Positions 5,664 through 47,052 of a DNA stretch of 64,000 bases are shown here, piece after piece (the first letter of the stretch is position 1; each line of letters starts with the position of its first letter). Origin of the DNA: Patescibacteria group bacterium (lineage in GTDB: Bacteria; Patescibacteriota; Minisyncoccia; Phycocordibacterales; PALSA-1337). The position numbers and the translations under genes are program-made. The stretch is from assembly GCA_018971685.1 (NCBI GenBank), contig JAGXAG010000004.1, forward strand, positions 2,416 through 66,415, written 5' to 3'. The notes under the pieces are model-generated. The model saw only the letters and a list, made by a program, of their open reading frames with translations. It searched no databases and was not told the origin of the DNA.

Positions 5664-5783
5664 AATCCTCCGTTCTGGCGGCTAGCTACTTTCGCCAAAA
5701 AGACTATCATCGCCGCAACTGCGTTTCACTGCCGTGTTCGGAATGAGAACGGGTGGTGCCACAGCGCCAAACCACCAGAACGC
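5664..5783 (-). rRNA. rrf: 5S ribosomal RNA
   Basis: The reverse complement reads cctgcgttctggtgg...ccgttctcattccgaacacggcagtgaaacgc...ccgccagaacggagg. Helix I ends pair, and the sequence aligns with the E. coli 5S internal blocks (CCGAACTCAGAAGTGAAACGCCGTAGCGCCGATGG). Confidence 0.85.
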
Positions 5784-6004
5784 AGGATTCAATTTTGACT
5801 GTTGCGCATTCGGTGACGAATGTTAGTTGTGCGTTTCGGCAAATGCTACTCGTAAATGTTGGCATTTTCACAAAGCACAATAGCTCTCGGACATGCACGC
5901 CATTGTGCTTTGGAAAATGCATCAACATTTACTTCACAGCAGAATTGCCTCAACTTACAACTAACATTCGTCACCGAACTAAATAGGTAAACAAAACAAG
6001 CGAC

Positions 6005-9080
<3,076 letters not shown>

Positions 9081-11015: not shown

Positions 11016-11480
11016 TTATTTCAACTCAACTTTTCCGCCCGCGGCCTCTATTTGCTTCTTCCAATTTTCGGCGTCTTCTTTCTTCACGCCGTCTTTGAGT
11101 AGAGCCGGCGCGCCATCGACCAAGTCTTTGGCTTCTTTCAAGCCCAATCCCAACACTTCCTTGATCACTTTGATAACTGCAATTTTCTGATCGCCCGCCG
11201 CCGCCAAATGCACCGCGAACACACTCTTTTCATCGCTCGCCGCCGCGCCGGCCGCAGGAGCCGCCGCTTGAGCCGCCGCTTGCGCCGAGACGCCGAACTT
11301 CTTTTCCAGCAATTTCACCAATTCATTCAAGTCAATAACCGACATTTTCTCGATCGCAGTCACAATTTCCTTGAATTTGGCCGGAATGGCTACCGCCTCC
11401 TGATTTGCCTGAACGGTTTCCGTTGTTTTGTTTGTTTCCATGTTTGTTTGATTTGTATAATTTGTATACTTTGATATCAC
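11016..11480 (-). CDS. rplL: 50S ribosomal protein L7/L12
   Basis: …[20 protein letters not shown]…[10 protein letters not shown]…[56 protein letters not shown]. The true start is probably the internal Met (METNK…). Confidence 0.9.
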
Positions 11481-11965
11481 GATTTCTTTTTACTGATGCT
11501 ATCCAGGGCTATCACCAATCCCTGTATCGGCGAATTGACCACATTCACGAACATGCCATACAGAGTCTGCAGAGGCGGTATGGCGGCAATCGCCGTCATT
11601 TCTTCCTTCGCCATGAATTTGCCGTCGAAAACGCCGCCGACAATCGATACCTGGTCCTTGAATTTCTTTTGGAATTCATACACGCCTCTGGCCGGTGCGA
11701 CCAGATCGGTGCCATACGCCAAGCCGGACTCGCCAACCAATGTTGGTTGCGTGCCCGAGAATTTTTTGGCCTCGAGCGCTTTTTCGGTCAAGGTCTTCTT
11801 GGCTACAAAATAGCCCACGCCGTCTTGTTTCAATTGCCGGCGCATCGCCGAAGCATCGGCCACCTTGAGTCCGTGGAAATTGACGAAAACTAGCGACTTG
11901 GACGCGTCGATGATTTTGCCCAATTTCTCGATGATTTCTTTCTTTTGTTCTTTTGTTCTTGCCAT
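11477..11965 (-). CDS. rplJ: 50S ribosomal protein L10
   Basis: [50 protein letters not shown]…, typical L10. Overlaps rplL by 4 nt, consistent with an operon. Confidence 0.9.
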
Positions 11966-12164: not shown

Positions 12165-15113
12165 TCACTGTTCGAATTGGGAGATGAACAAATCGATTTG
12201 GCTGATAATCTTATCCTTATCGGCTTGCGTCAGCTCCTTGAATTTCTTGTGTCCGATATTGGCCTTGAATTTATCGGCGGCCTTAATGATTTTTTCGGTA
12301 ATTTTACCGGCTTTTTTATCATCCTTTTCGCCACCCTTTTCATTACCACTTCTCTCATTCTTCGCACTCTTTGTCGACTCTTTCTCTATCTTATCGATGC
12401 GTTTGAATAATTCTTTGGCTTTTTTCGAATCGCCGAGCATGTTCGTTATCAGGCTTCTCAAGGAATTCAGATAATCGATTGCAGTTAATTTTTGGTTTGG
12501 CTTGGCTTCCAGGTCGACCGCGCCATCGCCATCCACATCGATTTCCAAAGGCCTGGCCGCTGAAACTATCAATCCCGTAGTTGTTGCCGGATTTTCACCG
12601 AGCGGCGGGATTTCTATAGTAGTCGAAGCGGCTGTTAATGGGATTACGGGCTGGCCGACATATTCGACACGGTCTATGGTGTTTAGATCGCCTCCAATGG
12701 TTCGATCGATATCGAGGGTGAAGGTGCCCGATCCGGTACCTTTGACTGCCACCGTGTATTTCTTTCCGGTATCCGGCAATGTGACATATTGATCTATATC
12801 GTCATCGCCTTTTTCGTCAAGGCTGAAATAACTGCCGGGAATTTGCGTCTCGTAGAAAGTGAGTATGTCATCTTCGACTTCCGGCGGCCTGGAAATAGTG
12901 CCGGTATGATTGCCATTTTCGTCGTATACATGAAGGTCCACCGGCGAATGCGTGCTGATGACGATGTTTACGGGCGCAACATCTTTTGAATAGTCAGGTT
13001 CGCCGCAGGTCACTCCCGGAAGTTTCGTCACAGCATCACAAACAGATTGGTACTCTTGTTTCGTCAAAGCGTTTCCGATCAGCTGTTGGGTTGTCGATGA
13101 TTCCAATATGGTCGCATGATCTGTCGAGTTCTTGTCCGCACGAGACGCGGATTCCAAATCTATAGACATTGCGTTGCCGGCATCGTAAGCGGCGCTTTTG
13201 GCCATCACAGTGCCGTCACCCATACTGGACATATCTTTTGATACCATAGGAGCGTCGGCATATTTTACTTCTTTTGTGGTGTTCAAGCCCCATCCCAATA
13301 TGGCCCATCTGGTTATAGCCGCCGGCCAAGTAAAAGTGTCGATAAATGCATGGAGCGTATCGGCGGCCGCCATCAATACGCTATTGCCTTTTATCGGCAT
13401 ATCCGTATTCGAAGGACGAGGGTCAACGCGTATATTGTTTGAATCTGTTATAAATCTTGATTGCTCAGCTCCCGATCGGATATTTTGCTGATAAGATCCG
13501 TCGTTAACGCCTGCAACCGTCGTGGAAGCGAATGCTATAGTCGGACCAAGCACATTTGAAAAATATGCGGCAGACGGAAGCAACGAATAGGCGCTAGGCA
13601 TATTTTGCCCCAATTGTCTGGCTACTGATTTTTTCAAAATTATGCCTGATAAGATCGACTCCCCGTCTCCATGCAAAATACTTGCGATCGCCTGGGGCGT
13701 GCCCAGATACGGAACGGCGACGGAAATGACGGAATCGATCAGGCCGGCTTTGCCGAGGTCGGATAGGGTCTTTACGAGATATTTCGCGACCAGGCCGCCG
13801 TTGGAGTGGGCGATGAGCGTGACTTTGCCGGTTCTGGAGCGGGCGGCCAAGTCTTCGACATCCTTGACCAGATATTCGGTCGTCGTCGCCTTTTGTTCCG
13901 GCCCCGCAACCACTTCCGCAATGGGCTTGCGCCAATCATAGCCGAAAGACTTCCACTCATTCACGGTTCCATTCCGGACCAAACCGTCCAAAAAATCCAT
14001 GAATTTGCCGTAGATGCGGTACAAGCCGAAGACGCTGGCGATGGGATCGCCGGAATAAATGGCCGGATCGGGATTGGTGCCATCGGGATTCAAAAACAGT
14101 TTGCGGACATCGTCATTCCTGTTGGGAGGCCAGAGCGTGTTGGTGATCGGGCCCAGCTCGAGCGGCAGAGATTCCGGGCGATAAATGGCGGTACCTTCGA
14201 GGCCGGGCAGGAATAAAACGCTGGAACAGCATTCCGGCTTGTCTTGGCCGGGATCAAGCGGCGGCTCGGACATGAGCCACGGGTCGTAATCAACCGCGCC
14301 AACGACAACATTGCCGTATTTTGTAATGTCGGTAACAGGCCCCTCGGCGCTGCCCCACCAATTATTCTCGGCGATAACGGTGCCGGTTGAATAATTCCTG
14401 AGGGCATAACTGCTATTGCCGGCGAGCGACGAGTTGACGACGGTAAGCGACGGCACGGCTTGGGACTGATCGAGCGCATTGCCGATGCCGCCGATGTCGA
14501 GCGGCGTTTCATTCGCGACCAGCTGCGGATTGCCGGAAGCTTGAACGGTTATGCCGCGGCGGGAGTTGGTAAATTTGCTGCCTTGAATGGAGACGACGCT
14601 GTTTTTCATGACGAATCCGTCGTACCCGCCGGAAACGGTGCTGGTGGCAATGATTCCACTGGATCCATCCAAGGTTATATTGTTAACTTGTCGGAAATCG
14701 GCGTTCTTGCTCGAGAAAGAGCCGTTTATGGCGCCCACGGTCATCAAATCGCGGATGATCACTCTGGCCGATCCTTTGCCTTGGATGTCGATAACGCCGC
14801 CGTTTGTCACGATGCCTGTAAAAACATTGGCGGGATCGCCGGCTATTTCGACGCCGTCTTTGACAGTCAAAGTCACGCCGGGATTTACTGTGACATAGTC
14901 CTCAAGTATATACGGGCTTCCGGTTTTGTCCCAGATCGTGTCATGATCAATAAAATTGTTAATGGGAACTCTGGTTTCCGCTCGCGCCGAACTGACGGGG
15001 ATCGTGAATGCCAACAACGCGGCGCACAGAATGACGCCGAAAAATGATTTGTGGTTTGATGCGTATTTCATGGTGTTTATGCTCATTGGCTTGTAATGCC
15101 AAGAGCGTATCAC
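12165..15113 (-). CDS. large secreted protein: right-handed beta-helix domain plus alpha/beta-hydrolase (lipase/esterase-like, GxSxG) domain plus KE-rich tail
   Basis: 982 aa. The likely true start is MKYASNHK… (15071), which gives a signal peptide FFGVILCAALLAFTIPVSSARA. Repetitive V-x-G/N-rich beta-helix region. Nucleophile elbow VTLIAHSNGGLVAKYL. C-terminal K/E-rich low-complexity tail. Confidence 0.6.
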   Translation of the reverse strand: MIRSWHYKPMSINTMKYASNHKSFFGVILCAALLAFTIPVSSARAETRVPINNFIDHDTIWDKTGSPYILEDYVTVNPGVTLTVKDGVEIAGDPANVFTGIVTNGGVIDIQGKGSARVIIRDLMTVGAINGSFSSKNADFRQVNNITLDGSSGIIATSTVSGGYDGFVMKNSVVSIQGSKFTNSRRGITVQASGNPQLVANETPLDIGGIGNALDQSQAVPSLTVVNSSLAGNSSYALRNYSTGTVIAENNWWGSAEGPVTDITKYGNVVVGAVDYDPWLMSEPPLDPGQDKPECCSSVLFLPGLEGTAIYRPESLPLELGPITNTLWPPNRNDDVRKLFLNPDGTNPDPAIYSGDPIASVFGLYRIYGKFMDFLDGLVRNGTVNEWKSFGYDWRKPIAEVVAGPEQKATTTEYLVKDVEDLAARSRTGKVTLIAHSNGGLVAKYLVKTLSDLGKAGLIDSVISVAVPYLGTPQAIASILHGDGESILSGIILKKSVARQLGQNMPSAYSLLPSAAYFSNVLGPTIAFASTTVAGVNDGSYQQNIRSGAEQSRFITDSNNIRVDPRPSNTDMPIKGNSVLMAAADTLHAFIDTFTWPAAITRWAILGWGLNTTKEVKYADAPMVSKDMSSMGDGTVMAKSAAYDAGNAMSIDLESASRADKNSTDHATILESSTTQQLIGNALTKQEYQSVCDAVTKLPGVTCGEPDYSKDVAPVNIVISTHSPVDLHVYDENGNHTGTISRPPEVEDDILTFYETQIPGSYFSLDEKGDDDIDQYVTLPDTGKKYTVAVKGTGSGTFTLDIDRTIGGDLNTIDRVEYVGQPVIPLTAASTTIEIPPLGENPATTTGLIVSAARPLEIDVDGDGAVDLEAKPNQKLTAIDYLNSLRSLITNMLGDSKKAKELFKRIDKIEKESTKSAKNERSGNEKGGEKDDKKAGKITEKIIKAADKFKANIGHKKFKELTQADKDKIISQIDLFISQFEQ

Positions 15114-15120
15114 ACCGTTA

Positions 15121-15185
15121 TTACGGCTCGATTACAAACCGATAACATTTTAATGACAAAGGTCTAACGGAATGGTGACTTTTTC
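15121..15185 (-). promoter_or_regulatory. conserved promoter module copy A (TTGTCA - identical 17-nt spacer - TGTAAT), oriented toward the 12165..15113 gene
   Basis: The reverse complement reads cctTTGTCAttaaaatgttatcggttTGTAATcgagccGTAAT. Same module as copies B, C and D. Confidence 0.5.
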
Positions 15186-15193
15186 CGCCGAAT

Positions 15194-15231
15194 GCTAGGT
15201 TAGTCCTCGTTTAGACGAGGACTAACCTAGC
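15194..15231. terminator. perfect 16-bp stem hairpin gctaggttagtcctcg-ttta-cgaggactaacctagc
   Basis: Read directly from the sequence. No clean U-tract, so it may be an RNA structure or insulator rather than a simple terminator. Confidence 0.45.
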
Positions 15232-15342
15232 AATGGGCCGCCAAATTTGCCGGCCAGAAACAGGATAATGAAAATTGCGGCCAGGATCAGCAGAAAACCG
15301 AATAGAAATTTGAAGAAGACGCGGTCGAATGGATTTACCATG
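15226..15342 (-). CDS. possible 38-aa hydrophobic micro-protein (MVNPFDRVFFKFLFGFLLILAAIFIILFLAGKFGGPLL)
   Basis: Short ORF below the ORF-track cutoff. Pure TM peptide. No RBS evidence. Confidence 0.2.
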
Positions 15343-15351
15343 CTCTAAATA

Positions 15352-15410
15352 ATAACAAATTCGTCATTAAAATGTTATCAGTTTGTAATCAGATTGTAAT
15401 TTCGAATCGG
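15352..15410 (+). promoter_or_regulatory. conserved promoter module copy B upstream of toxin gene 1
   Basis: tTCGTCAttaaaatgttatcagttTGTAATcagatTGTAAT. The ATG of MPYEKD… lies about 15 nt downstream, giving a near-leaderless transcript. Confidence 0.5.
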
Positions 15411-15845
15411 TATAGTTTACTGATGCCATACGAGAAAGACCTAAACAGCTGGAACGAATTCAGTAAGAAACTCGAAACTGTCGAGCCGCCCTATTTCAGA
15501 GAACAAGAAATCTGGTGGATTGCATTCGGCACTAACATAGGCGTAGAAATCGACGGCAAACACGAACTCTTTGAGCGGCCCGGCATCATATTCAAAAAAT
15601 TGAATCGCGAATACGCCTTGGTCATTCCCATAACAAGAACCGAGAATAAAATTCCAAAAATACATGTGCCAATATCGTGCGCGGGAATAAAGAAAGGATC
15701 AGTTGCCACCATCAGTCAGATAAGATCTATGAGCTCCAAAAGATTGTTGCGTAAAGCAGGAGTATTGCCGCTGAATCAATTTGCGAAATTGCTGGATAAA
15801 TTCATGGTAATGGTTTCAACGGCGGATATGCAAGTTACGGACTGA
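15372..15845 (+). CDS. MazF/PemK/EndoA-family endoribonuclease toxin (paralog 1) with a ~27-aa N-terminal extension
   Basis: REQEIWWIAFGTNIGVEIDGKHELFERPGIIFKK…YALVIPITRTENK matches the MazF/Kid core (GDIWxVxFxPxxGxExxKxRPxLVIS…PxTS). Probable true start MPYEKD at 15423, since the ORF-track start lies inside the promoter. Confidence 0.7.
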   Translation: MLSVCNQIVISNRYSLLMPYEKDLNSWNEFSKKLETVEPPYFREQEIWWIAFGTNIGVEIDGKHELFERPGIIFKKLNREYALVIPITRTENKIPKIHVPISCAGIKKGSVATISQIRSMSSKRLLRKAGVLPLNQFAKLLDKFMVMVSTADMQVTD

Positions 15846-15854
15846 CAGAAATAA

Positions 15855-15882
15855 GGCGCCTCCGTTTTTCACGGAGGCGCCG
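15855..15882 (+). terminator. rho-independent terminator (ggcgcctccg-ttttt-cacggaggcgcc)
   Basis: GC-rich 10-bp stem with a T-run, 10 nt after the toxin 1 stop. Confidence 0.6.
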
Positions 15883-15961
15883 GAGCCCGAAGGCAACAAT
15901 CACGATCATGGTAGCAGACCTAGATTGAAAGTCAATCTCTTGAGATTATTTGAAGTACTAC

Positions 15962-15998
15962 ACTCCCCCTACTTCCCCGCGTTCAAGAGCGCCCTGGC
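15962..15998 (-). pseudogene. fossil 3' end of a peptidoglycan-binding-domain gene (…ARALLNAGK*)
   Basis: ccccctacttccccgcgttcaagagcgccctgg is about 85% identical to 16597-16633, which encodes …ATRALMNAGK* of the intact gene 16604..18367. It is part of the tandemly duplicated toxin unit. Confidence 0.4.
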
Positions 15999-16004
15999 GT
16001 TAAA

Positions 16005-16057
16005 TTTTCGTCATTAAAATGTTATCGGTTTGTAATCAGATTGTAATTTCGAATCGG
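16005..16057 (+). promoter_or_regulatory. conserved promoter module copy C upstream of toxin gene 2
   Basis: cgttaaattTTCGTCAttaaaatgttatcggttTGTAATcagatTGTAAT. Confidence 0.5.
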
Positions 16058-16459
16058 TATAGTTTACTGATGCCATACGAGAAAGACCGAAACAGCTGGA
16101 ACGAATTCAGTAAGAAACTCGAAGCCGTCGAGCCGCCCTATTTCAAGGAACGGGAAGTTTGGTGGACCTCAATTGGCGTTAATATCGGCCATGAGGAGGA
16201 TGGTAAAGGCCCCGCTCTCTCAAGGCCGGTTTTGATACTGAAAAAATTCGGAAAATATACTTTCCTTGGAATACCTTTGTCGACGACAAAAAGAGTTGGA
16301 GCGCTTTATCGCCATTTCTCTTTTCTCCCGGAAGTAGATAGTGTAGCCTTGCTCGCACATACAAAATCATTTGACTCCAGAAGACTGATCAAGAAGATCG
16401 GAACCATTGCGGATAAAGATTTTTGCGCCATGAGAAAAGCCGTCAAAGATTTACTCTGA
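16019..16459 (+). CDS. MazF/PemK/EndoA-family endoribonuclease toxin (paralog 2)
   Basis: KEREVWWTSIGVNIGHEEDGKGPALSRPVLILKK…FLGIPLSTTKR…SVALLAHTKSFDSRRLIKKIGTIADKDFCAMRKAVKDLL aligns end to end with B. subtilis EndoA/MazF. Probable true start MPYEKD at 16070. Confidence 0.7.
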   Translation: MLSVCNQIVISNRYSLLMPYEKDRNSWNEFSKKLEAVEPPYFKEREVWWTSIGVNIGHEEDGKGPALSRPVLILKKFGKYTFLGIPLSTTKRVGALYRHFSFLPEVDSVALLAHTKSFDSRRLIKKIGTIADKDFCAMRKAVKDLL

Positions 16460-16603
16460 CGGCTTTTCTCATGATTTGATTCCGCGCCCCGGTTTTCGTT
16501 TTTCGACGGAACCGAGCCCGAAGGCCAATGTAGCTTCATGATAGCGAACTCAATCGCAAAGTCAATATTGACAAGTTCTTTGAAGCATTGCGCCGCTCCC
16601 CCC

Positions 16604-18367
16604 CTACTTCCCCGCGTTCATCAGTGCCCTGGTCGCCGGCCCGACCACGCCCAAAGTATCGAGCCCATGCGCCTTCTGATACGCTTGGACGGCGGCTTTG
16701 GTGAGGGGGCCGAAGTAGCCGGTTACGGGGCCGGAATAAAATCCGGCCTTGGCGAGATACTTCTGCAATGCCGTCACATCGGGATCCGCGACGCCTTGCT
16801 TGGTCATGCCCATGTACAAATATCGCCCGAAGACATAACTGTCAATCCCGGAGACAGTCGAAACGGCAGAAACATGTGTAACTGTCGATGGAACCGGTGT
16901 GCCGACCAGATTGGCGGACGAATCGTTTCCTATCCATAGAAAAGCCTGACCACCCGTTCCCTGAGGATTAGCAAAAGTAATAACGATTGGTATGGGAGTT
17001 GTCGTATTAATCGGCACCGTGTAAGAGGCGGTATAAGGCCCACTGCCACTGCCAGAAACAGTAACCGGCAAACCGCCTATGGACAGATCGGGTACGCTTA
17101 TTGATTGGTTGAATGAAATAGATATTGACAACACACTTCCAGCTCCGGCAAATCCGCCGGTGTCGTTGGACAGAACTGACAATGAAGCGACTGCTGGTTT
17201 CGAAACATTTGATGCCGGCGAAATAGTGGCAGAAGAGCCGCTGACACTAGGCGCTACATAAACATAGAAAGTGCCACAAGGACCGCCAGATTGGCAAACA
17301 GTTATGTTGGCTCCACCGAAAGCCATGGCCGAGAGTGATACGGTCGCTCCATTGGTATTGGCAGAAACCGAATCTGGAGCTGAATTCTGAGACACATAAT
17401 AAACCTGCGGAGCTCCGTTACCGCCATAAATAGAGACCATTTGCGTCTGACCTATACTCATGTTCACCTGGCTTTGGCTGAATGAAAGGGAGGGAGTGAT
17501 TGTTGTACTTGTATTGACGGCAGAAGATGCGACCGTGACAGACAGATTGGCACAGGTCGTACTTCCACCGGAATATGAACATACGCTTAGAGAATCAGTG
17601 CCAGTGGATACGCCGACAACAGTCAGGGTGGAACCGGATATACTAGCGGTGGCTACGCCTGAATTTGAATTTGACGACAAATAATACGAACCTGAGCCGG
17701 TGATAAAGATCTGTTGCGACTGGCCGGCAGAAATCGAGACTGCGCTTTGGCTTAAAGATACGCTGGCTGTCGCCGCGGCTGACGCACTTACTGATACCTG
17801 CACATTGCCGCACCCTATATTGGAGGCACATACAGTGATGTTGGTAGTACCGAAAGCCAGACCTGTTATAGTTATCTGATTACCGGAAATTACCGCTCCG
17901 GCTATTGCCGGATTGACATTATTACCCAGAGACAATGGAGCGGATACGGAAGCCGAGACTACTGCCGTCTGTCCCACCAACAAGGATATCATGCTTTGAC
18001 TCAATGACAGTCCGCCAGAGGCGGTATAATTTGGCCACACTTGAGTCATTGACTGGATATTGTCAACCGATGCGTACACAGGCACTCCGGCGGCAATACC
18101 GTACTGGGTTGAGTTTACAGATGTAGTCAAATAGCCACTAGAATTGGTCGTACCTATGTTGACTGATGTGTATCCACCGGATGACGGGTAATACAACAAG
18201 ACGGATGCGTTCGGATCTGCTTGTAATATAGTCACTGTGACTGCACTACTTCCGGAACTGTTGCTGAGTGATATGGACGGGATATTTGCCGCCAATGTCG
18301 GCGACGCCGCTACCAAACACAATACAACAAATAAGATACTGCTGATTATTGTATTTCTTGTATTCAT
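16604..18367 (-). CDS. secreted S/T-rich surface protein with C-terminal peptidoglycan-binding domain (PG_binding_1-like)
   Basis: 587 aa. Signal peptide (ILFVVLCLVAASPTLA), long Ser/Thr/Gly-rich repetitive region, C-terminus DPDVTALQKYLAKAGFYSGPVTGYFGPLTKAAVQAYQKAHGLDTLGVVGPATRAL. Confidence 0.6.
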   Translation of the reverse strand: MNTRNTIISSILFVVLCLVAASPTLAANIPSISLSNSSGSSAVTVTILQADPNASVLLYYPSSGGYTSVNIGTTNSSGYLTTSVNSTQYGIAAGVPVYASVDNIQSMTQVWPNYTASGGLSLSQSMISLLVGQTAVVSASVSAPLSLGNNVNPAIAGAVISGNQITITGLAFGTTNITVCASNIGCGNVQVSVSASAAATASVSLSQSAVSISAGQSQQIFITGSGSYYLSSNSNSGVATASISGSTLTVVGVSTGTDSLSVCSYSGGSTTCANLSVTVASSAVNTSTTITPSLSFSQSQVNMSIGQTQMVSIYGGNGAPQVYYVSQNSAPDSVSANTNGATVSLSAMAFGGANITVCQSGGPCGTFYVYVAPSVSGSSATISPASNVSKPAVASLSVLSNDTGGFAGAGSVLSISISFNQSISVPDLSIGGLPVTVSGSGSGPYTASYTVPINTTTPIPIVITFANPQGTGGQAFLWIGNDSSANLVGTPVPSTVTHVSAVSTVSGIDSYVFGRYLYMGMTKQGVADPDVTALQKYLAKAGFYSGPVTGYFGPLTKAAVQAYQKAHGLDTLGVVGPATRALMNAGK

Positions 18368-18555: not shown

Positions 18556-20649
18556 TTAAATTGTCGGAGTCCTCCACGTAGTCAGACCAGACATGAAGGT
18601 AGTGGTAGCCGAACCAGTATTGTACCCCACACCTTGAAGTTGGACGGAATAAGTGTTGGCACCAGGATCGGTTACGGTGAACGAGTAGGTAACCGGTATT
18701 GTCACGCTCTGGTTGATACCGAGAGTGAAGTTGTTACCCGAGGTCGTTGTGTTGTTCGGGGCCACATAAGCGGCGATCAAAGCAGGATTGAAGTTGTTCG
18801 CCGTATTGTCCGGATTGGCTCCATTGCCAGTAACTGCAACCTGGTTCTGGTAGATCTGAGCAAGCGTCTTGCTTGTCGATGTGGTTCCAAACGAAGCTGT
18901 GGCAGAAGCCGGGAGACTGAAGGTCACTGTTTGACCTACAGCCTGGGCCACTACATTGAATGTAGCCACATAGCTGAATGTCGTCGATCCAGTAGTCGAG
19001 TTGCTTGAAGTCTGCGTCTTGGTTATCGTGGGAGTACCAGAGAGCGACAAGTTCAAACCGCTTCCGAGAACAGAGAGCTGGTTGCCCTGAGCCGAACCGT
19101 TAACGGTAACCGAGCTGTCAGCCGAATTGTAAACAATCATAGCTGAAGTCGAAGCCGTTACATTTTCGCTAGAGCCAGTAGCTGTCAAACCGTTTACATC
19201 AACCTTGACGGTAAACGGAACGGTCTGATTGATCGGAATACCGGCACCAGTCGTGCCATCTGGAATATTATTGAACGAGGCACTGCAGTTATTGCCGGTG
19301 CAAGTAACCGTTCCTGACATGATTGGCGTCGAACCTTGATACAGGTAAGCCGCGGAAACGCTGCCCCCTGAAGACGAACCGGTGGTGTTAATGTTAACCG
19401 ACACACTATGCAGGTGCAGGTTGTCTCCCTGGGAGTTGACATCGAAAACCAAGACCGGTAAGCCTAAGTACTGTCCAGTCGTCACATTGGTGACGGGGAT
19501 GGAGCTGACCAAGGGCGAAGTCGAATCGAGAGCGATGTTGGCCGAAGCGTTAAGAGTCAAGTTCTGATTGACAACTATAGCCTGAGCAACACTACCCGAG
19601 GGACCACCGTTGTAAGTAACCGGGCCTCCATTGAGAGGACCATACTGATTGATACCGGCGCCGTCAACCGCACGTATGCCGTTGGCGTCTATACCCATAT
19701 ACCATGTCTGCAAGTACTGCGTCAGGATAGTCGGGTAGGTATCTACGGCAATCTGCAAATCCTTGAAAGTGCCCTTCGGGACAATGAAGTTGAAGCCCGA
19801 GAGACCGACAATGTAGTTGCTACTGCTCTGAACGACCGTAGAGCTGTTCAGGGGTTCGGAAGTAAGAACTTTATTGGTCGAGGGATCAATCAAGTAGATC
19901 TTGCTATACACATAGTTATATATGGCAGTCGAAGTGCCCAAGTCAACCTGTACAGCCTGGACCGCGAGGTCAGAATATTGAGCCTGGATACGCGCATCCA
20001 ATACTGGGATCATTGTCTGGCCGGCATAAGCGCTCGAAATTGAAACCGGACCCTGCGTTACTGACATTATACCTTGAACACCGGGGGTGGTAATACCTTG
20101 AGTTGACCCTTCAACCGGAGCTGTTCCAGGAGTTGTCGGAGTGCAGGTGTAACCGACTGGACAAGTGACCGCGACCGGAGTCGGGGTTGTCGGAGTGCAG
20201 GTGAATCCTGCGGGACAACTGGCGACCGTAGTGCTAGTACCGCCAGCGGTGGCAGTCGTACCGGCATTCAACGCCGCGCGAGTAAGAGGACCGACGAAAC
20301 CTGTATTCGGAATGCTGTGAGCGGACTGATATGCCATGACAGCTGTCTTCGTCTGCGAACCAAAGTAACCTTTGGCGGCAGCGCCAGAAGCAACGGCCGG
20401 AATGTTATAACCAGCTGCGATCAAAGCTGTTTGGAGAGCAACAACATCAGGACCAGTCGAACCTACCGTGAGGTTAGTGTTGAACTGATACGCTTGAGCT
20501 CCCGCAACAAGGGTAAGAGCCAAAATGGCCGCACCCGTTGTCATAAGAATTTTTTTCATTTTTGAATAATTAACTTTAACTTGTAATATTTGTAATACTT
20601 TCTTTGCACGCATGTTCCTTATAAAGGAACCGACTAGCGCGCGTTCCAC
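18556..20649 (-). CDS. secreted S/T/N-rich surface protein with N-proximal peptidoglycan-binding domain and CPxGxTCTPTTP repeats
   Basis: 697 aa. Likely true start MKKILMTTGAAILALTLVAGAQA (signal peptide) at about 20559. PG-binding-like segment GSTGPDVVALQTALIAAGYN…YFGSQTKTAVMAYQSAHSIPNTGFVGPLTRAAL. Two copies of CP(A/V)G(F/Y)TCTPTTP. Very long Thr/Ser/Asn/Gly-rich region. Confidence 0.6.
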   Translation of the reverse strand: MERALVGSFIRNMRAKKVLQILQVKVNYSKMKKILMTTGAAILALTLVAGAQAYQFNTNLTVGSTGPDVVALQTALIAAGYNIPAVASGAAAKGYFGSQTKTAVMAYQSAHSIPNTGFVGPLTRAALNAGTTATAGGTSTTVASCPAGFTCTPTTPTPVAVTCPVGYTCTPTTPGTAPVEGSTQGITTPGVQGIMSVTQGPVSISSAYAGQTMIPVLDARIQAQYSDLAVQAVQVDLGTSTAIYNYVYSKIYLIDPSTNKVLTSEPLNSSTVVQSSSNYIVGLSGFNFIVPKGTFKDLQIAVDTYPTILTQYLQTWYMGIDANGIRAVDGAGINQYGPLNGGPVTYNGGPSGSVAQAIVVNQNLTLNASANIALDSTSPLVSSIPVTNVTTGQYLGLPVLVFDVNSQGDNLHLHSVSVNINTTGSSSGGSVSAAYLYQGSTPIMSGTVTCTGNNCSASFNNIPDGTTGAGIPINQTVPFTVKVDVNGLTATGSSENVTASTSAMIVYNSADSSVTVNGSAQGNQLSVLGSGLNLSLSGTPTITKTQTSSNSTTGSTTFSYVATFNVVAQAVGQTVTFSLPASATASFGTTSTSKTLAQIYQNQVAVTGNGANPDNTANNFNPALIAAYVAPNNTTTSGNNFTLGINQSVTIPVTYSFTVTDPGANTYSVQLQGVGYNTGSATTTFMSGLTTWRTPTI

Positions 20650-26652: not shown

Positions 26653-26856
26653 TTAACTTGCCACATACGGCAAAAGCCCCATGAAGCGGGCGCGCTTGAC
26701 TGCCGTCGCCAACTGCCGCTGATACTTCGCCGATATGCCTGTGCGTTTGCGGCTTATGATGCGGCCGTGCGGATTCAAGAACCGCTTTAATACATCCGTA
26801 TCTTTGTAGTCTATGTACTTGATATTATGCTGGTTGAAATAACACTGTTTTTTCAT
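26653..26856 (-). CDS. rpsR: 30S ribosomal protein S18
   Basis: …[51 protein letters not shown]. Confidence 0.9.
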
Positions 26857-26885
26857 GTGATTTTTTTTAATTGGTAATCTTACCC

Positions 26886-27365
26886 CTAGAATGGAATGTC
26901 GTCCGGATTAATCTCCTCTTGCGGATAGTCAATCTTTTCACCTCCTTCCGCTGACGGCGCGCTTTCATCGGCCGCAGACATCGCTCCCCCTTCATCTGTG
27001 GGAGATCCGGCGGCTGCGCTTTTGCCAGCCGGGCTCGTCGGCTTGGATCCGAACTGGATATTGTCGGCGATTATTTCGGTTCGATATTTCTTCACTCCTT
27101 CTTGCGTATCCCAAGAACGGGTCTGTATGCGCCCTTCAACCAGGACTTGCTGGCCTTTTCGGAGATACTGGCCGGCCAACTCACCCAACCTGTTAAAGGC
27201 GGAAACATTGTGAAATTCGACCATCTCTTGCTTTACACCATCTTTATTCTTGAACACACGGTTGGTAGCCACGCCGAACGAAGATACTTTGGAACCCGAC
27301 GGCAACGCCTTGATTTCCGGATCACGGGTCAAGTTCCCTATGATAAACACTTTATTTAGATACAT
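26886..27365 (-). CDS. ssb: single-stranded DNA-binding protein
   Basis: [43 protein letters not shown]…[36 protein letters not shown]… with the acidic tail …DDIPF. Confidence 0.9.
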
Positions 27366-27397
27366 GTTTTTATTTTGGCTTAAACCTGGTAAATTGT

Positions 27398-27928
27398 TCA
27401 GATTACCTCTTTGACCATCTCGTCAATACTCCTGTCCATATCTTCGACTGAGGCGGCGGTCGCTGGCGCGGCTTCTTTCTTGTCGCGCTTGTTATCTCCC
27501 TGATCAGTCTCGGCTTTGGTTTCGATCGCTCGATCAGAGCCGGTCAATTCGGCGGCGATTTGCATGGCGCGCTTTCCGAGATAAGTGTTCTCGCGCACCG
27601 TCGACAAAAGGAGTGTGCGCAAGACAGACGGATTGGTTTCGAATGATTTTTTCACACCTTCGATCTTGCCGGCTTCGAGTTCGAATTTGAGCCAGCCGAA
27701 ATATGCATCGGCGTATTTTTCATACGAACCGGAAACGGTCTTCCTGCGCATTACATACGCCAACTTTTGCCTATGGGGCAACTCGTCGGCAATTATAGCT
27801 GCGCCGGCGCCGGTTATTATTTTGCGGAGTGCGTCAACCTCGTCGGAAATCTTTTCTTCGGGCACGGCCGGAGAAAGCAGATATCCGATCTCATATACGG
27901 ACATGTCGCCATTTATTGTGTCGTCCAT
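27398..27928 (-). CDS. rpsF: 30S ribosomal protein S6 (with C-terminal extension)
   Basis: YEIGYLLSPAVPEEKISDEVDALRKIITGAGAAIIADELPHRQKLAYVMRRKTVSG…YFGWLKFELEAG… The order rpsF-ssb-rpsR is conserved. Confidence 0.9.
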   Translation of the reverse strand: MDDTINGDMSVYEIGYLLSPAVPEEKISDEVDALRKIITGAGAAIIADELPHRQKLAYVMRRKTVSGSYEKYADAYFGWLKFELEAGKIEGVKKSFETNPSVLRTLLLSTVRENTYLGKRAMQIAAELTGSDRAIETKAETDQGDNKRDKKEAAPATAASVEDMDRSIDEMVKEVI

Positions 27929-28084
27929 GGTTTTTTGCGGCCGGAGACTCCTCTTCGCGAGGAGACCTTGATTGCAAGGACCGGCTGCGATTACCTATTA
28001 ATAACGATACGCTAACATTTTATTTGCCTTTGCGCAAGAGCGTCCCCGGACCGGCGATTTCCGAGGCGCTTTTATAGTATCAGA

Positions 28085-28150
28085 CGCTGATTACAGTCTG
28101 ATTACAAACCGATAACATTCTGATGACAAAAGTTTAACGGAATGATGACT
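28085..28150 (-). promoter_or_regulatory. conserved promoter module copy D, about 160 nt upstream of the rpsF-ssb-rpsR operon
   Basis: The reverse complement reads ccgttaaactTTTGTCAtcagaatgttatcggttTGTAATcagacTGTAATc. Same -35/17-nt spacer/-10 as copies A-C. Confidence 0.45.
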
Positions 28151-33253: not shown

Positions 33254-34609
33254 TCAGCCCATAATTTTCTGGCAACGCCGTGATATGTCTTTTTCCATCA
33301 CCCTCTCCTGTTTCCCGGTATCCCGATCCCTCACCGTCACGCCAGCGCCTTTTTCGACAGTTTCAAAATCAACAGTGACGCAAAACGGCGTGCCGATTTC
33401 GTCTTGTCTGCGATACCTCTTGCCGATATTGCCGTTGTCGTCAAATTCCACCGCGGCAAACTCTTTCTTCAACATGCCGAACACTTCCCTCGCCTTTTCA
33501 ACCAGCTGTGGCTTGTTGCGCAATAATGGAAATACCGCGATTTTCACAGGCGCAAGTTTGGGCGGAAGTTTCAAGAAGACGCGCTTGTCTTTTGCAGTAT
33601 CCGCATCCGTCGCCGCGGCGCCCATCTCATCTTCGGAATAGGAATTGCATAAAACCGCTTCGACCAGCCGATCAACGCCCAAAGACGGCTCGATCACATG
33701 CGGAATAAAACGGCTCTTTGATCCTTCGTCAAGATATGAAAGGTCGACTCTGCTCTGTTCCGTGTGATTCTTCAGGTCGAAATCTGTGCGATAAGCGATG
33801 CCGAATAGTTCTTTGCGGCCGAACGGATAGTCATATTCCACATCGATCGTCCGCTTCGAATAGTGCGCGCGCTCGCCGTCCGGGACTTCAAATTCATGGA
33901 CTTTGTCATTACCGATGCCCAGATCGGCCAGATACGCGAGCGATTCGTTCTTCAATTCATCGAAAGACTTTTGCCATTCGTCCGGCCGAACAAAATACTC
34001 TATCTCCATTTGCTCGAATTCGCGCGAACGGAATAAAAAGTCGCGCGGCGCTATTTCATTCCGGAATGCCTTGCCGATTTGGGCCATGCCGAAAGACAGT
34101 TTCGGGTGGAAAGAGTCAACCACATTTTTGAAATTCACGAACATGCCCTGCGCCGTCTCCGGGCGCAAATACGAAACCGACGACTCGTCTTCGACCGCGC
34201 CGACATGCGTTTTGAACATCATGTTGAACTTCTTCGCCTCGCCCAAGGTACCGCCGCATTCCGGGCATACTGTTTTTCCAAGGTCCGACTTTGGGATTTG
34301 GTCGGCGCGAAAGCGGCTCTTGCACTTTTTGCATTCGACCAGCGGATCCGAGAATCCCGAGACATGCCCGCTTGCCTGCCACGCCTCCTGACGCATCACG
34401 ATCGCCGCGTCGATGCCGTACATATCTTCCCTGTCCTCTACAAACCTCTTCCACCAAAGCTTCTTAATATTATTCTTCAGCGCCAAACCGTAATGCGCAT
34501 AATCCCAAAACCCGGCCAATCCGCCGTAAATTTCCGACCCTTGATAAATAAAACCGCGCCGTTTGCACAGCGAAACTATTTTATCCGTCAATTCGTTTTT
34601 GTTTGCCAT
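33254..34609 (-). CDS. glyQS: glycine--tRNA ligase (alpha2 homodimeric type)
   Basis: MANKNELTDKIVSLCKRRGFIYQGSEIYGGLAGFWDY…FRNEIAPRDFLFRSREFEQMEIEYF…, class II motifs. Confidence 0.9.
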   Translation of the reverse strand: MANKNELTDKIVSLCKRRGFIYQGSEIYGGLAGFWDYAHYGLALKNNIKKLWWKRFVEDREDMYGIDAAIVMRQEAWQASGHVSGFSDPLVECKKCKSRFRADQIPKSDLGKTVCPECGGTLGEAKKFNMMFKTHVGAVEDESSVSYLRPETAQGMFVNFKNVVDSFHPKLSFGMAQIGKAFRNEIAPRDFLFRSREFEQMEIEYFVRPDEWQKSFDELKNESLAYLADLGIGNDKVHEFEVPDGERAHYSKRTIDVEYDYPFGRKELFGIAYRTDFDLKNHTEQSRVDLSYLDEGSKSRFIPHVIEPSLGVDRLVEAVLCNSYSEDEMGAAATDADTAKDKRVFLKLPPKLAPVKIAVFPLLRNKPQLVEKAREVFGMLKKEFAAVEFDDNGNIGKRYRRQDEIGTPFCVTVDFETVEKGAGVTVRDRDTGKQERVMEKDISRRCQKIMG

Positions 34610-34615
34610 GTAAAA

Positions 34616-34731
34616 TTTACAGTTTACAATGATAAGTTATCAGTTTAAGTGAAAAAAATAAAATTTCAAGTCCTTTGTCGTCATTCATATTAGTCATATC
34701 TCGCTAATAACTTATCATTGTAAACTGTAAA
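34616..34731. repeat. REP-like palindromic element, copy i (24-nt perfect arms ttacagtttacaatgataagttat / its reverse complement, about 66-nt spacer)
   Basis: Lies between the stop of 34732..36675 and the start of glyQS. The core is GATAAGTTATC. The spacer contains tttgtcgtcat, which resembles the module -35. Confidence 0.55.
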
Positions 34732-36675
34732 CTACCTCACCACCGTCTCCATGCCGTTTTTGTAACTCGGGTCTGTACTGAACCTTGTCGTCAAATAACT
34801 CTGCGTGGCTGTCAATTTTTGGCCGGTAAAGTCGTCCATGGCTGTCATGGCCGCATCGTTCACGATCGTCGGAATACTGTTCACTTGGTTAACATTCGGC
34901 TGTACCGACACTTGGAAATCGAGCTCTTTGCGCGTGCCGTTACCAACCGTGTAAGTTCCGACAGTACCGGCATTCCAAACAACCGAGTTCGTAGAAGACG
35001 AGAAGCTCACATCTTCCGTCTGCGGACTGAAATTCCCGGTCCATGTCACATATGGCGGCAGAGTCGCAGTCACTTGAGCATTGTCTATGATATTTGTCGT
35101 ATTGTCGATTGTCCAGATGACAGTATAGGTTGTTTGTTGGTCGGCTTTTGGCGGTATTGGACCGGTATTAACGAACGGACCTATTGTCCGCGCCACTCTG
35201 CCTGACAAAGTCGGCACGGTTGAGATGCGCACCGTTCTGGCCGCGATCGAATTTAGGGACTCGGGAACTCCCGTCTCCTGCGTGCGTTTTCCCGTGACAG
35301 CCGCCGAAAATGACAGTGTCGGATTTACCACCGGCTGGCCCGACAAACTGAGGTCGCGTGGCGTGATGGAGAACGACACTGTGCCGCTTTCTCCCGCACC
35401 TACCGAAGCCAGCTGTGGTACTGTTTGCTGATTCCAAATGATTTGGTCGGTAGCGGAATTATAATATCCTTGTCCGGGCTGGACCAGCGTACGGTCATAA
35501 GCCGTACCCGAAAGCTTGAGTGTGATTTGCGCATCTGACACCGCGTCCGGCAGATTGTTGAACCATGAGACATCCACGCGCACCGGCTGGTTGAAACTGC
35601 CTGTAGCCGGCGCCGCGGACTGATCGCCGTCTATCGATATACCCACCGTCATGAACGGCTTCTGGATGGCAATATCCTGCTCCGCCGATACGAACTCTGT
35701 GCCGATCACGCTATGATCCGTATTGCTCCGTGCGCCGACATTGAACCTGAAGACGCGCGTATCCGTGTTTTCTCCCTCCAATTTGCCATGAATGGTGAAA
35801 ATTTTCTCCGCGCCCGGCGGCAAATCACCTAGACTCCAAGTGGCGTTGTCCGGCAACGGTTTCAAGTCCGAAGAGACAAAAGTGTACCCGAAGGGATACG
35901 ATGCCGCAACCAGCACATTCTTCAAGATGTCGCTAGTATTGGACTTGACATCGACTTTCATGTCGAATTCTTGACCTGAAGTTATTTCCTTGAATGAAGT
36001 AACTGTCAGGTTTACCGGCGAAGAATTGATGAGTACGGCATAAGTTTGTTCCTTGGTAAATGAAGACGATGAACCCTTTATCTGGTAAGTCAAATCGGCG
36101 GTTATTTGCTTTTGCAAGTTTTCTTCGCCGAAAATGATCGCTTGTACGGTCCGGTGTACGCTCGCACCCGACGGTATGTCGCCCAAAAGCTCGCGATAAG
36201 TGGTCAGAGCGGTTCCGGGATTTTGCGGATCGGTCGCGCCGGCCGGAAAATTCACTGCCAGGTCAACAAGCTGGAGATCAACGCTGTTCTTATTGGTTAC
36301 GGTTATATCGAAAGATACGGGGGTGCCGCCGGGTATAGATACGGGGCCGCTTATGGTTATGTCTATATTGTCGGCAGATATTAGATTGGAACCGTTAAAA
36401 AAGAGGTAAGCGCCGATGCTCACGGCAATCACGCAAAATATGGCGGATCCTATCAACAACTTGGTAAAAAATGACATGGAATGGTCTTCATATTCTCTGT
36501 TCAAAACGGGCTTTATCGGTTCTTCCGGCGGTCTGTCCCAACCGGTTTTTATGCCGCTTACATTGTCGCCGAACCTGAACTTTCTCCTGGTACGCACATC
36601 GGGCGAGCCCCTCGAGTATAGGGAATTTTGCAATTCATTTATTTGATTCCCGCCTTCTCCTTGCACGGAATCCAT
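34732..36675 (-). CDS. hypothetical large membrane-anchored extracytoplasmic protein
   Basis: 647 aa. One N-terminal TM helix (LIGSAIFCVIAVSIGAYLFF). Repeated beta-rich, Ig-like segments. Unassigned. Confidence 0.45.
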   Translation of the reverse strand: MDSVQGEGGNQINELQNSLYSRGSPDVRTRRKFRFGDNVSGIKTGWDRPPEEPIKPVLNREYEDHSMSFFTKLLIGSAIFCVIAVSIGAYLFFNGSNLISADNIDITISGPVSIPGGTPVSFDITVTNKNSVDLQLVDLAVNFPAGATDPQNPGTALTTYRELLGDIPSGASVHRTVQAIIFGEENLQKQITADLTYQIKGSSSSFTKEQTYAVLINSSPVNLTVTSFKEITSGQEFDMKVDVKSNTSDILKNVLVAASYPFGYTFVSSDLKPLPDNATWSLGDLPPGAEKIFTIHGKLEGENTDTRVFRFNVGARSNTDHSVIGTEFVSAEQDIAIQKPFMTVGISIDGDQSAAPATGSFNQPVRVDVSWFNNLPDAVSDAQITLKLSGTAYDRTLVQPGQGYYNSATDQIIWNQQTVPQLASVGAGESGTVSFSITPRDLSLSGQPVVNPTLSFSAAVTGKRTQETGVPESLNSIAARTVRISTVPTLSGRVARTIGPFVNTGPIPPKADQQTTYTVIWTIDNTTNIIDNAQVTATLPPYVTWTGNFSPQTEDVSFSSSTNSVVWNAGTVGTYTVGNGTRKELDFQVSVQPNVNQVNSIPTIVNDAAMTAMDDFTGQKLTATQSYLTTRFSTDPSYKNGMETVVR

Positions 36676-36748: not shown

Positions 36749-37396
36749 TTACAGGTGTGATTCCTTTATGGCCTTATTTATGTGTTTGTTCAAAAGCACC
36801 CGCTTTGGAACCAACACATCCAATAATTCAGTGTTGATTTCGCATGATTTCAAACGATCGCCGAACTCAGCCGAGTCGCCTATATAACCAAGCAGGCGCA
36901 AAATCCTGGCGACGGTCAATGACTCCAGTGTCGACAGTCTCTCCGCGTTCAACTCCGGTTGTTCGCAATTTTCCAAGAATTTATTGCACTCCAAGACGCA
37001 GTCGAACAATTCCGGATGCGCCTCTTCGCCGTGAAGAAACTGCTTCAATAATGCAGCAATCTTCGCGACGAGTTCGAGGGAGTCGCCCGAGACGGAACAA
37101 GCCGGTTTTTGCGCAATCGGCGAATGCTGCTCGCAAAAACCGGCTTGTTCCGTTTCGGGCGCCACTATTTCACATGCATCCGTCAATCGCCAAAATTCCC
37201 TGCCGCGCACGAACGAAAATTCACCGAAAGAATAATTCTGGACAAATGGCCGCAATTTCGACTTTTCCAACCGTATTCCCTGCGCCGATGCCATGACCAG
37301 TCCCAGATCCTTCGTGAAGATGAATAAAATCTTGCCGGCGTCGCCGTAGGTTTTCGACGCGATTACCAATCCACAAGTGGTGCGTATTTCATGCAT
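36749..37396 (-). CDS. recO: DNA repair protein RecO
   Basis: N-terminal OB-fold-like GLVIASKTYGDAGKILFIFTKDLGLVMASAQGIRLEKSKLRPFVQNYSFGEF. Start overlaps the ileS stop. Confidence 0.65.
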   Translation of the reverse strand: MHEIRTTCGLVIASKTYGDAGKILFIFTKDLGLVMASAQGIRLEKSKLRPFVQNYSFGEFSFVRGREFWRLTDACEIVAPETEQAGFCEQHSPIAQKPACSVSGDSLELVAKIAALLKQFLHGEEAHPELFDCVLECNKFLENCEQPELNAERLSTLESLTVARILRLLGYIGDSAEFGDRLKSCEINTELLDVLVPKRVLLNKHINKAIKESHL

Positions 37397-45844: not shown

Positions 45845-46375
45845 ATGCTCAAAACCTTCATCGTCGCCGCTCTGTCCGCCGACGGATATATTGCCAGAGA
45901 CGAACGCCATCCGGCGTTTTGGACGAGCAAAGAGGACAAGAAGCGGTTCGTGAAATTGACCAGACGGGCGGGCGTGGTCGTTATGGGCGCCAATACATTC
46001 ACGACCATTGCAAGGCCGTTAAAAGAGCGCGTCAATATAGTCTATTCCCGCTCCAGAAGCTTCGAGGGCGCCGAGATGACCCAAGACTCCCCTTTAGACC
46101 TCCTCGCCAAGCTGGAAGCGCGCGGTTTCAAAGAGGCCGCTATCTGCGGCGGCTCCCATATTTACACCATGTTCATGAAAGCCGATGTCGTCGACCGCCT
46201 GTACCTGACCGTCGAGCCCATCATATTCGGCGCCGGCATCCGCCTATTCAACGAACCGCTTGATAATTATCACCTCGAATTATTGTCCTTGAATAAAGCC
46301 GGAAACGGCGCCATTCTCCTCGAATACAAAGTCGACTATTCCGGTTCGCCGAAAAGTGAACTCGAGGTCAAATAA
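45845..46375 (+). CDS. dihydrofolate reductase-like protein (RibD-C/DHFR family)
   Basis: FIVAALSADGYIARDERHPAFWTSKEDKKRFVKLTRRAGVVVMGANTFTTIARPLKERVNIVYSRS follows the DHFR nucleotide-binding pattern. Co-located with thyA. Confidence 0.65.
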   Translation: MLKTFIVAALSADGYIARDERHPAFWTSKEDKKRFVKLTRRAGVVVMGANTFTTIARPLKERVNIVYSRSRSFEGAEMTQDSPLDLLAKLEARGFKEAAICGGSHIYTMFMKADVVDRLYLTVEPIIFGAGIRLFNEPLDNYHLELLSLNKAGNGAILLEYKVDYSGSPKSELEVK

Positions 46376-46947: not shown

Positions 46948-46986
46948 ATTGTTTGGTATGCTAGCATAAGTTGATTAATAAACAAG

Positions 46987-47043: not shown

Positions 47044-47052
47044 AAATTATCC

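Follow-up and report, generated by a model that had tools for sequence, protein, structure and literature searches.

Direct repeats with an 11-bp period are best known as the sites read by head-to-tail oligomers of the OmpR/PhoB family. In Escherichia coli, some 10 bp separate the end of the Pho box from the -10 element, and PhoP of Bacillus subtilis binds four hexamers located from -60 to -20. To our knowledge, almost nothing is known on transcriptional control in Patescibacteria (candidate phyla radiation, CPR), whose genomes retain only few regulators. Pho boxes are composed of two 11-nt direct-repeat units, in each of which about 7 positions are conserved and 4 vary (PMC4415409); in E. coli, conservation is highest for the motif CTGTCAT (PMC4415409, PMC3465305). 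ArcA sites contain 2-5 direct repeats with 11-bp spacing, and their footprints cover 30-60 bp over promoters (PMC3798270). The WalR consensus is TGTWAH-N5-TGTWAH (PMC9210968, PMC6624279); in Staphylococcus aureus, WalR directly controls rplK, hup, dnaA and prs in addition to autolysins, and its mode of action is set by the position of the site relative to -35 and -10 (PMC10746227). Patescibacteria keep about five two-component genes (PMC7137472), and in the literature on CPR promoters and response regulators we found only a general statement on reduced two-component systems. Here we describe a short module that recurs upstream of genes in a 64-kb stretch ("the window") of a Patescibacteria group bacterium (contig JAGXAG010000004.1), a placement also given by the database names of identical proteins; together with about 7 kb from look-ups beyond both ends, about 71 kb of the genome was examined. 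Each module is an array of hexameric half-sites repeated every 11 bp and placed at a fixed distance from a predicted -10 element, and we consider it rather probable that it is a phased factor-binding array defining a small regulon.

The original prediction, made from the sequence of the window, placed four copies of a promoter module upstream of four named transcription units, and this four-copy observation was confirmed. The 19-nt core AATGTTATC(G/A)GTTTGTAAT matched at 15131-15149 (-), 15371-15389 (+), 16018-16036 (+) and 28101-28119 (-), against 0.06 matches expected by chance; four matches were reached in 0/100 shuffles, and the same four copies (A, B, C and D) were returned by a repeat finder. 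According to the repeat finder and alignment, about 40-50 nt are common to all four copies at 88-94% identity, with 83% identity over 78 nt between A and D, 90% over 50 nt between C and D, and 90% over 40 nt between A and C. No further copy was present in the ~7 kb added beyond the window ends. All 4/4 copies are oriented toward downstream genes, and these are the genes that had been named, as confirmed by Pfam: an LCAT-like gene (A), two MazF-like toxin genes (B and C) and the rpsF-ssb-rpsR operon (D). The arrays within the modules are as follows, with units in gene orientation.

15120-15180, minus strand: array A, six units, AGTCAC (15180-15175), CGTTAG (15169-15164), TGTCAT (15158-15153), TGTTAT (15147-15142), TGTAAT (15136-15131) and CGTAAT (15125-15120).
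15362-15400, plus strand: array B, four units, CGTCAT (15362-15367), TGTTAT (15373-15378), TGTAAT (15384-15389) and TGTAAT (15395-15400).
15998-16047, plus strand: array C, five units, CGTTAA (15998-16003), CGTCAT (16009-16014), TGTTAT (16020-16025), TGTAAT (16031-16036) and TGTAAT (16042-16047).
28090-28150, minus strand: array D, six units, AGTCAT (28150-28145), CGTTAA (28139-28134), TGTCAT (28128-28123), TGTTAT (28117-28112), TGTAAT (28106-28101) and TGTAAT (28095-28090).

In each module, hexamers of the form (n)GTnA(T) recur in a single orientation with a period of exactly 11 bp, so that all half-sites lie on one helix face. In gene orientation, TGTCAT, TGTTAT, TGTAAT and TGTAAT start 11 nt apart, and extra in-phase units are found upstream, namely CGTTA(G/A) and AGTCA(C/T) in A and D and CGTTAA in C; a seventh in-phase GTGA in A overlaps the extended -10 of this copy. 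Runs of at least three GTNA at the 11-bp period occur almost exclusively in the four modules, with Markov shuffles giving an expectation per window of 0.24 for three repeats and 0.01 for four. A motif-free scan for lag-11 self-similarity placed B and D at the top (27/44) and A and C fourth and fifth (23/44), the latter two tying with one coding-region site and just below another at 24, over a background with a window mean of 11.2 and a standard deviation of 3.1. In the four-copy alignment, 0/16 columns of the GTNA cores vary versus 9/24 elsewhere (Fisher p=0.006), and between A and D 0/24 core columns differ versus 15/55 elsewhere (p=0.004), the spacers between hexamers being the most variable portion of the module. 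The sole other runs of three GTNA in the window are at 28016-27991 (-), within the rpsF leader, where the sequence is aaaaTGTTAgcgtatcGTTAttaatagGTAA and array D lies about 75 nt upstream, and at 46356-46381 (+), at the end of a DHFR gene inside a long inverted repeat, where it is probably due to chance.

This anatomy changes how the conserved part of the module is understood. An invariant 17-nt spacer between -35 and -10 had been proposed, with a single embedded operator, GTTATCGG, for a common regulator. The 17-nt string is real, but it holds one half-site, the repeated hexamer TGTTAT, and parts of the neighbouring half-sites, and is therefore not a spacer. The constraint falls on GTnA cores every 11 bp across the whole module, and the GTTATC of GTTATCGG is not kept in related lineages, which have TTTGAT or CTTGAG at that position. 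Thus a shared cis-regulatory module stands, with a common regulator as its best explanation, but the single operator in the spacer finds no support. A link to the GATAAGTTATC palindromes was likewise rejected, only a 6-mer being in common and this 6-mer not being kept in relatives. The palindrome family, TTTACAGTTTACAATGATAA(G/A)TTATCA, is an element separate from the phased array; its copies (34613-34734, 46984-47049 and 51306-51359) lie directly upstream of a class II aminoacyl-tRNA synthetase gene (33254-34609; tRNA-synt_2b/HGTP_anticodon), of rplK, where the copy sits between nusG and rplK, and of a methyltransferase gene. On either strand, its core can be read as TGATAA(G/C)TT, which is like an extended -10.

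The arrays are positioned relative to the following predicted -10 elements.

15104-15112, minus strand: predicted extended -10 of A, TGaTACGCT, with the hexamer at 15109-15104 and a predicted transcription start at about 15097.
15411-15416, plus strand: predicted -10 of the toxin-1 promoter (B), TATAGT, 6 nt upstream of the ATG at 15423, with a predicted transcription start at about 15423.
16058-16063, plus strand: predicted -10 of the toxin-2 promoter (C), TATAGT, 6 nt upstream of the ATG at 16070, with a predicted transcription start at about 16070.
28074-28082, minus strand: predicted extended -10 of the rpsF promoter (D), TGaTACTAT, with a predicted transcription start at about 28067.

Between the last unit and the predicted -10 hexamer there are exactly 10 nt in each of the four modules. 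Relative to the predicted -10, the half-sites occupy -28/-23, -39/-34, -50/-45 and -61/-56, and also -72 and -83 in A and D; no -35 hexamer is present, and no half-site is placed where sigma region 4 could read it. The original prediction had instead assumed a sigma-70 promoter (-35 TTGTCA/TCGTCA, 17 nt, -10 TGTAAT) with GTTATCGG in the spacer as an operator; in the rival model drawn from it, this would be the site of a repressor. These strings do stand at 17-nt spacing in all four copies, TTGTCA matching the -35 consensus at 5/6 positions in A and D and TCGTCA at 4/6 in B and C, and -35 recognition exists in this genome, since its 23S gene has the classical promoter TTGACA-16-TAGTAT. However, TGTAAT has G at position 2 instead of the essential A and is not called in any copy by a consensus sigma-70 scan, while the better -10 located 10 nt after the last TGTAAT is present in every copy and kept in relatives. 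With this revised -10, TTGTCA falls at about -62 to -57. Considering also that the constraint is periodic and not limited to GTTATCGG, and that relatives differ at the operator position, we regard the sigma-70 model as very unlikely.

The extended -10 is probably the main promoter type in this genome, as judged from motif counts: the 8 kb of intergenic DNA contain 43 TGnTAnnnT, where shuffles give 21.5 +/- 4.4, and clear examples (TGATACAAT, TGCTAGAAT, TGTTACAAT and TGCTACAAT) stand before many genes. In toxin-gene homologues from other CPR genomes, the ATG is preceded by TGCTACGAT at 6 nt or by TGCTAGAAT at 9 nt; in these homologues and in a small open reading frame (ORF) between A and B the -10 hexamer lies 6-9 nt before the ATG. 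Because these extended -10s are only a few nucleotides from the ATG, leaderless or near-leaderless transcripts seem normal in this lineage, and since TATAGT is 6 nt before the toxin-1 ATG, the toxin-1 mRNA is predicted to be leaderless. At rpsF, conservation with relatives starts directly after the predicted -10 and runs through a structured leader of about 140 nt. As for the identity of the module, the Bacteroidetes-type -7/-33 promoter, DnaA boxes, CtrA boxes and LexA direct repeats were considered and rejected, as were plasmid iterons, no rep gene being found.

Conservation was analysed in relatives represented by 15-20 kb loci (L035, L037/L038, L043 and L044), in which the rpsF surroundings are syntenic and S6 is 53-61% identical to that of the window. 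Since the closest S6 homologues are at most 61% identical, no close relative was available. In each of these loci the top lag-11 segment is the rpsF upstream region. The WalR consensus had no match in loci L033-L035, L037-L039 and L041-L045, nor did three phased GTNA match in the loci of relatives, and the core was therefore relaxed to kTnA. Four phased kTnA units are essentially confined to the rpsF upstream region in relatives, with an expectation of at most 0.13 per locus. The units there are of the form yTTnAT (CTTCAT, TTTGAT, TTTCAT, CTTGAG, CTTTAT), versus TGTnAT in the window, and they are followed by the extended -10s TGaTACAGT, TGaTATAGT, TGgTATCCT and TGaTACTTT. The register of the units relative to the -10 is the same as in the window, except that it is shifted by 1 nt in L044, the most distant of these relatives: the gap between the last unit and the predicted -10 is 10 nt in the 4 window promoters and in 5 promoters of relatives, and 11 nt in L044.

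In addition, a second array was found in L037 (19996-20050) and L038 (19963-20017), consisting of TTTCAT, TTTTAT, TTTTAT, CTTCAT, 10 nt and TATAAA. It lies upstream of a gene for a 780-aa FGE-sulfatase-domain protein with a hydrophobic N-terminus, which adjoins the same small ORF that is found between A and B. The spacers of this second array are unrelated to those of the rpsF array in the same genome; what the two have in common is limited to half-sites, period and spacing from the -10. L037 arrays that share only half-sites and geometry are as expected for the sites of a trans-acting factor. When a composite pattern of three phased kTnA units, 10-12 nt and TAnnn[T/A] was run over about 200 kb, it matched the four modules, all rpsF promoters, the promoter of the sulfatase-domain gene and two other sites. 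We regard this set as the probable signature of a trans-acting factor with a small regulon, and the comparison suggests that this species inherited, and did not invent, the use of such an array to express a large exported protein encoded next to the small ORF.

An alternative is that no dedicated regulator exists: a strong promoter would have been duplicated, and the 11-bp period would be structural, with phased flexible steps or T-tracts by which upstream DNA is bent or wrapped around RNA polymerase, like an extended UP element. This idea accommodates the near-identity of the window copies at non-core positions as well, which shows that copying occurred, and promoter reuse of this sort is documented (PMC3575422). 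It also accommodates the phased T-runs in the arrays of relatives and the pyrimidine-purine step in every unit. On the other hand, the window arrays contain at most one or two A/T-tracts and yet G-T-n-A is invariant; their units extend to -23, within the core promoter, where UP elements do not act; and the other strong promoters of the window (23S, rplJ, rplK, nusG) have no array. The pattern looked for in UP elements or phased A-tracts, namely A- or T-tracts of at least 4 in helical phase and confined to about -40 to -60, is not seen in the window arrays, which have one or two such tracts, and is seen in part in the T-runs of relatives. Furthermore, position 2 of the unit is G in all window units, which go back to one sequence, but T in both L037 arrays despite their unrelated spacers, which fits protein specificity better than a structural role. 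We therefore hold the structural explanation to be unlikely, though one to be kept in mind, and retain the trans-acting factor.

The history of the copies is suggested by their non-core positions. Unlike the L037 arrays, the window copies share these positions, and they therefore arose by copying or gene conversion. The array is probably ancestral at the rpsF-ssb-rpsR promoter of a Paceibacteria-like lineage, as its retention at rpsF suggests, and would have been copied or gene-converted from there to other promoters in this genome. Copy A appears to be derived from the rpsF promoter including the TGATAC extended -10, and B and C appear to represent the array fused to their own TATAGT. Such promoter reuse, known as near-identical upstream regions before non-homologous genes in one genome (PMC3575422), would put the lipase-like gene and two solitary MazF-like genes under the input of the ribosomal/SSB operon.

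A further alternative is that the module belongs to a mobile element, for instance a MITE-like one, or forms the end of such an element, and carries an outward-reading promoter. Copies A and B face each other as inverted repeats (94% complementarity over 31 nt, 199 nt apart) and flank the small ORF, which is inverted relative to its orientation in L037. But C and D have no inverted partner, no transposase gene was found nearby (Pfam, about 55 window ORFs), the array is syntenic and ancestral at rpsF, and every copy points at a gene. The 19-mer AATGTTATCRGTTTGTAAT gave 7 matches in 185,579 species genomes and 20 in 241 million metagenome records, both collections without this genome; none extended past the pattern, and all are therefore chance matches. 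No sign of spread between genomes was seen in these public collections searched with the 19-mer. Of the mobile promoter cassette that had been suggested, relatedness of the copies by descent and promoter reuse are retained, while a MITE or mobile element, given that public copies are lacking, is scarcely credible.

The genes and other features served by or adjoining the modules are listed below.

12165-15071, minus strand: exported LCAT-like alpha/beta-hydrolase with a NosD-like beta-helix region, 968 aa (Pfam), downstream of array A.
15222-15341, minus strand: conserved, unannotated membrane-peptide gene (the small ORF), 39 aa, between the inverted copies A and B.
15423-15845, plus strand: PemK/MazF-like gene 1, 140 aa (Pfam).
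16070-16459, plus strand: PemK/MazF-like gene 2, 129 aa (Pfam).
26653-27928, minus strand: rpsF-ssb-rpsR operon (Pfam, S6-SSB-S18), with rpsF at 27398-27928, ssb at 26886-27365 and rpsR at 26653-26856.
27929-28067, minus strand: 5' leader, conserved and structured, between array D and rpsF.

The gene downstream of A had been described as encoding a 982-aa secreted protein; Pfam supports the LCAT/NosD-like assignment and the N-terminus is signal-peptide-like, but the true start is the ATG at 15071, which gives 968 aa. The toxin genes had been thought to start inside the module, whereas their starts are at 15423 and 16070. B and C form the 5' ends of a 183-nt tandem duplication (90%) that reaches about 40 codons into the two MazF-like genes. 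The two proteins are 45% identical overall with their first 24 residues near-identical, and the array together with the first 24 codons shows 90% nucleotide identity (15360-15542 versus 16007-16189). That the 5' ends are 90% identical and the proteins only 45% indicates a probable recent homogenisation of the 5' ends. The genes thus form a mosaic tandem pair, with proteins only about 40% identical beyond the 24 codons, and a 33-nt direct repeat (91%; 15965-15997 versus 16600-16632) brackets the second MazF-like unit.

No antitoxin gene adjoins either MazF-like gene or their homologues in other CPR genomes. This raises the possibility that the arrays are read by a different repeat-reading oligomer, such as MraZ, a protein of the ribbon-helix-helix type or one with the AbrB/MazE fold (for example the missing MazF antitoxin). 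Phased short repeats are read by these proteins too: TGGNA by AbrB, and GTGnn with a period of about 10 bp by MraZ. However, the period here is 11 bp and not 10, the unit is closer to OmpR-family half-sites, the arrays of relatives stand at rpsF and at the sulfatase-domain gene with no toxin nearby, and no array precedes the homologous toxin genes of other CPR bacteria. A reader of this kind is accordingly judged quite unlikely.

The small ORF is preceded by an extended -10 of its own, TGTTATTAT (15357-15349), at 7 nt from the ATG, and a relative's copy has TGcTATAAT 6 nt before the ATG. The membrane peptides of this family are 39-50 aa long with the pattern MVNPFD..FFKFL.GF; the gene, with its L037 homologue at 19785-19937 (minus strand), is uncalled in the NCBI annotation of the metagenome-assembled genome (MAG). 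A hairpin with a 15-bp stem (15196-15232) follows the gene. The rpsF leader, about 140-175 nt, is kept across lineages (L035 4398-4544, L037 9854-10000, L043 9826-10000) and shows the invariant blocks CTTGCG, GTAATCGCAG and CTG.CTGCAA; three compensatory pairs occur in its long-range helix. Possibly this is the CPR version of a leader through which S6:S18 regulates its own synthesis. An Rfam search found no family over the modules or the rpsF leader and matched only 23S and 5S rRNA; no tRNAs were found in the window.

Taken together, we propose that the module is an operator array of 4-6 (T/C)GTnAT direct-repeat half-sites spanning about -61 to -23 (to -83 in A and D), joined to a promoter that lacks a -35, for which the array would substitute, and whose -10 is extended or close to consensus. 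A sequence-specific regulator would bind the array as a head-to-tail oligomer of two or three tandem dimers; the likeliest candidate is a response regulator of the winged-helix OmpR/PhoB family whose specificity resembles that of WalR. Since the spacing from the predicted -10 is constant to the nucleotide in ten promoters, contact with RNA polymerase, and hence activation, is proposed: the bound regulator would contact the polymerase in lieu of a -35, in the PhoB/PhoP style. Activation appears somewhat more plausible than repression by occlusion. What the sequences show is the periodic anatomy, the selective constraint on the cores, the conserved register and the conservation in relatives; where transcription starts, which protein binds and whether it activates or represses are our inferences. 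For the OmpR/PhoB type of the factor as such, the chances appear to be nearly even at best. The WalR consensus, used as an independent pattern, gave 7 matches, all in the modules, versus 0.20 expected.

Several points weigh against this proposal. No response-regulator or other DNA-binding transcription-factor domain was found by Pfam among the about 55 window proteins, and the part of the genome examined is only about 71 kb. The four window copies descend from a common sequence and amount to little more than one independent array. The WalR consensus is met only in this organism, and zero matches in the loci of relatives leave WalR orthology unsupported. The arrays of relatives carry phased T-tracts that are compatible with a structural role (curvature). 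Finally, the -10 assignments are predictions from which the transcription starts follow, and the -10 hexamer of copy A, TACGCT, is weak.

Other features of the window were observed. The 23S and 5S rRNA genes (5673-9071, minus strand) have no 16S gene upstream, and the 23S match of 3057 nt versus a 2925-nt model suggests an insertion. The isoleucyl-tRNA synthetase (37396-40932, minus strand, 1178 aa) has a His_Phos_1 domain inserted in the catalytic domain, an arrangement kept in related genomes. The order of ribosomal genes is scrambled (11016-11965 and 46525-47598, both minus strand): rplK stands alone after nusG, and rplJ-rplL lie 35 kb from rplK, directly downstream of the LCAT-like gene, with their own extended -10, TGTTATGAT. 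Just past the 3' end of the window (L034, 9988-12241) there are a large serine recombinase, a PIN-domain gene and small ORFs, which may be an integrated element.

As a tentative overall picture, a regulator of the Paceibacteria lineage would control the essential rpsF-ssb-rpsR operon and large exported enzymes through the phased array, with its specificity shifted between yTTnAT and TGTnAT, and the array would have been copied to MazF-like and lipase-like genes. If so, this regulator would be among the very few left in episymbiont genomes of about 1 Mb, would couple ribosome and replication capacity, growth arrest and host-directed exoenzymes to one signal, and would define the first transcriptional regulon of a CPR bacterium. 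The cis-element itself is recognisable (3-6 phased kTnAT units, 10 nt and an extended -10), provides a handle for finding the regulator and its regulon in CPR, and offers a test of whether ribosomal and SSB genes are co-regulated with secreted enzymes and toxin-like RNases in episymbionts. In addition, the revised promoter model, with mainly extended -10s and often leaderless transcripts, matters for the annotation of gene starts in CPR MAGs.

Compared with putative mobile promoters and other cases of promoter reuse, the modules are alike in that near-identical upstream sequence stands before unrelated genes (A versus D, 83% over 78 nt), but here mainly the regulator-binding array was copied, and B and C keep their own -10. 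The WalR boxes of Bacillota resemble the arrays in that three consecutive half-sites of each copy match their consensus exactly and in that WalR also controls essential translation and replication genes. They differ in that the window arrays have 4-6 units versus one dimer site, the units of relatives do not fit the consensus, and the core WalR targets are cell-wall hydrolase and peptidoglycan-remodelling genes, whereas those found here are rpsF-ssb-rpsR, two MazF-like genes and an LCAT-like gene; the PG_binding_1 genes of the window (16604-18367 and 18556-20649) have no array, and no WalRK genes were seen in the DNA examined. With the operators of ArcA in E. coli, the modules share TGTTA-like repeats with 11-bp centre-to-centre spacing that overlap promoter elements (PMC3798270, PMC4173790), but ArcA is mostly a repressor with variable register, while the window register is fixed to the nucleotide relative to the predicted -10, which argues for contact with RNA polymerase. 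The Pho boxes of PhoB in E. coli and of PhoP in B. subtilis and Streptomyces likewise use multiple units that replace the -35, as proposed for the modules, and the first two module units, tTGTCATtaaaaTGTTAT, match 14/18 positions of CTGTCAT-AWAW-CTGTMAY (PMC3465305). They differ in their targets, as the genes found here do not form a phosphate regulon and neither pst or pho genes nor PhoB/PhoR were seen in the DNA examined, and in their unit, which is TGTnAT in the window and yTTnAT in relatives. In its TGTnA type the half-site resembles those of the OmpR/PhoB-family members PhoB, WalR and ArcA, and the element would be a new representative of a well-known kind of operator, found here in a lineage whose regulation is essentially unstudied.

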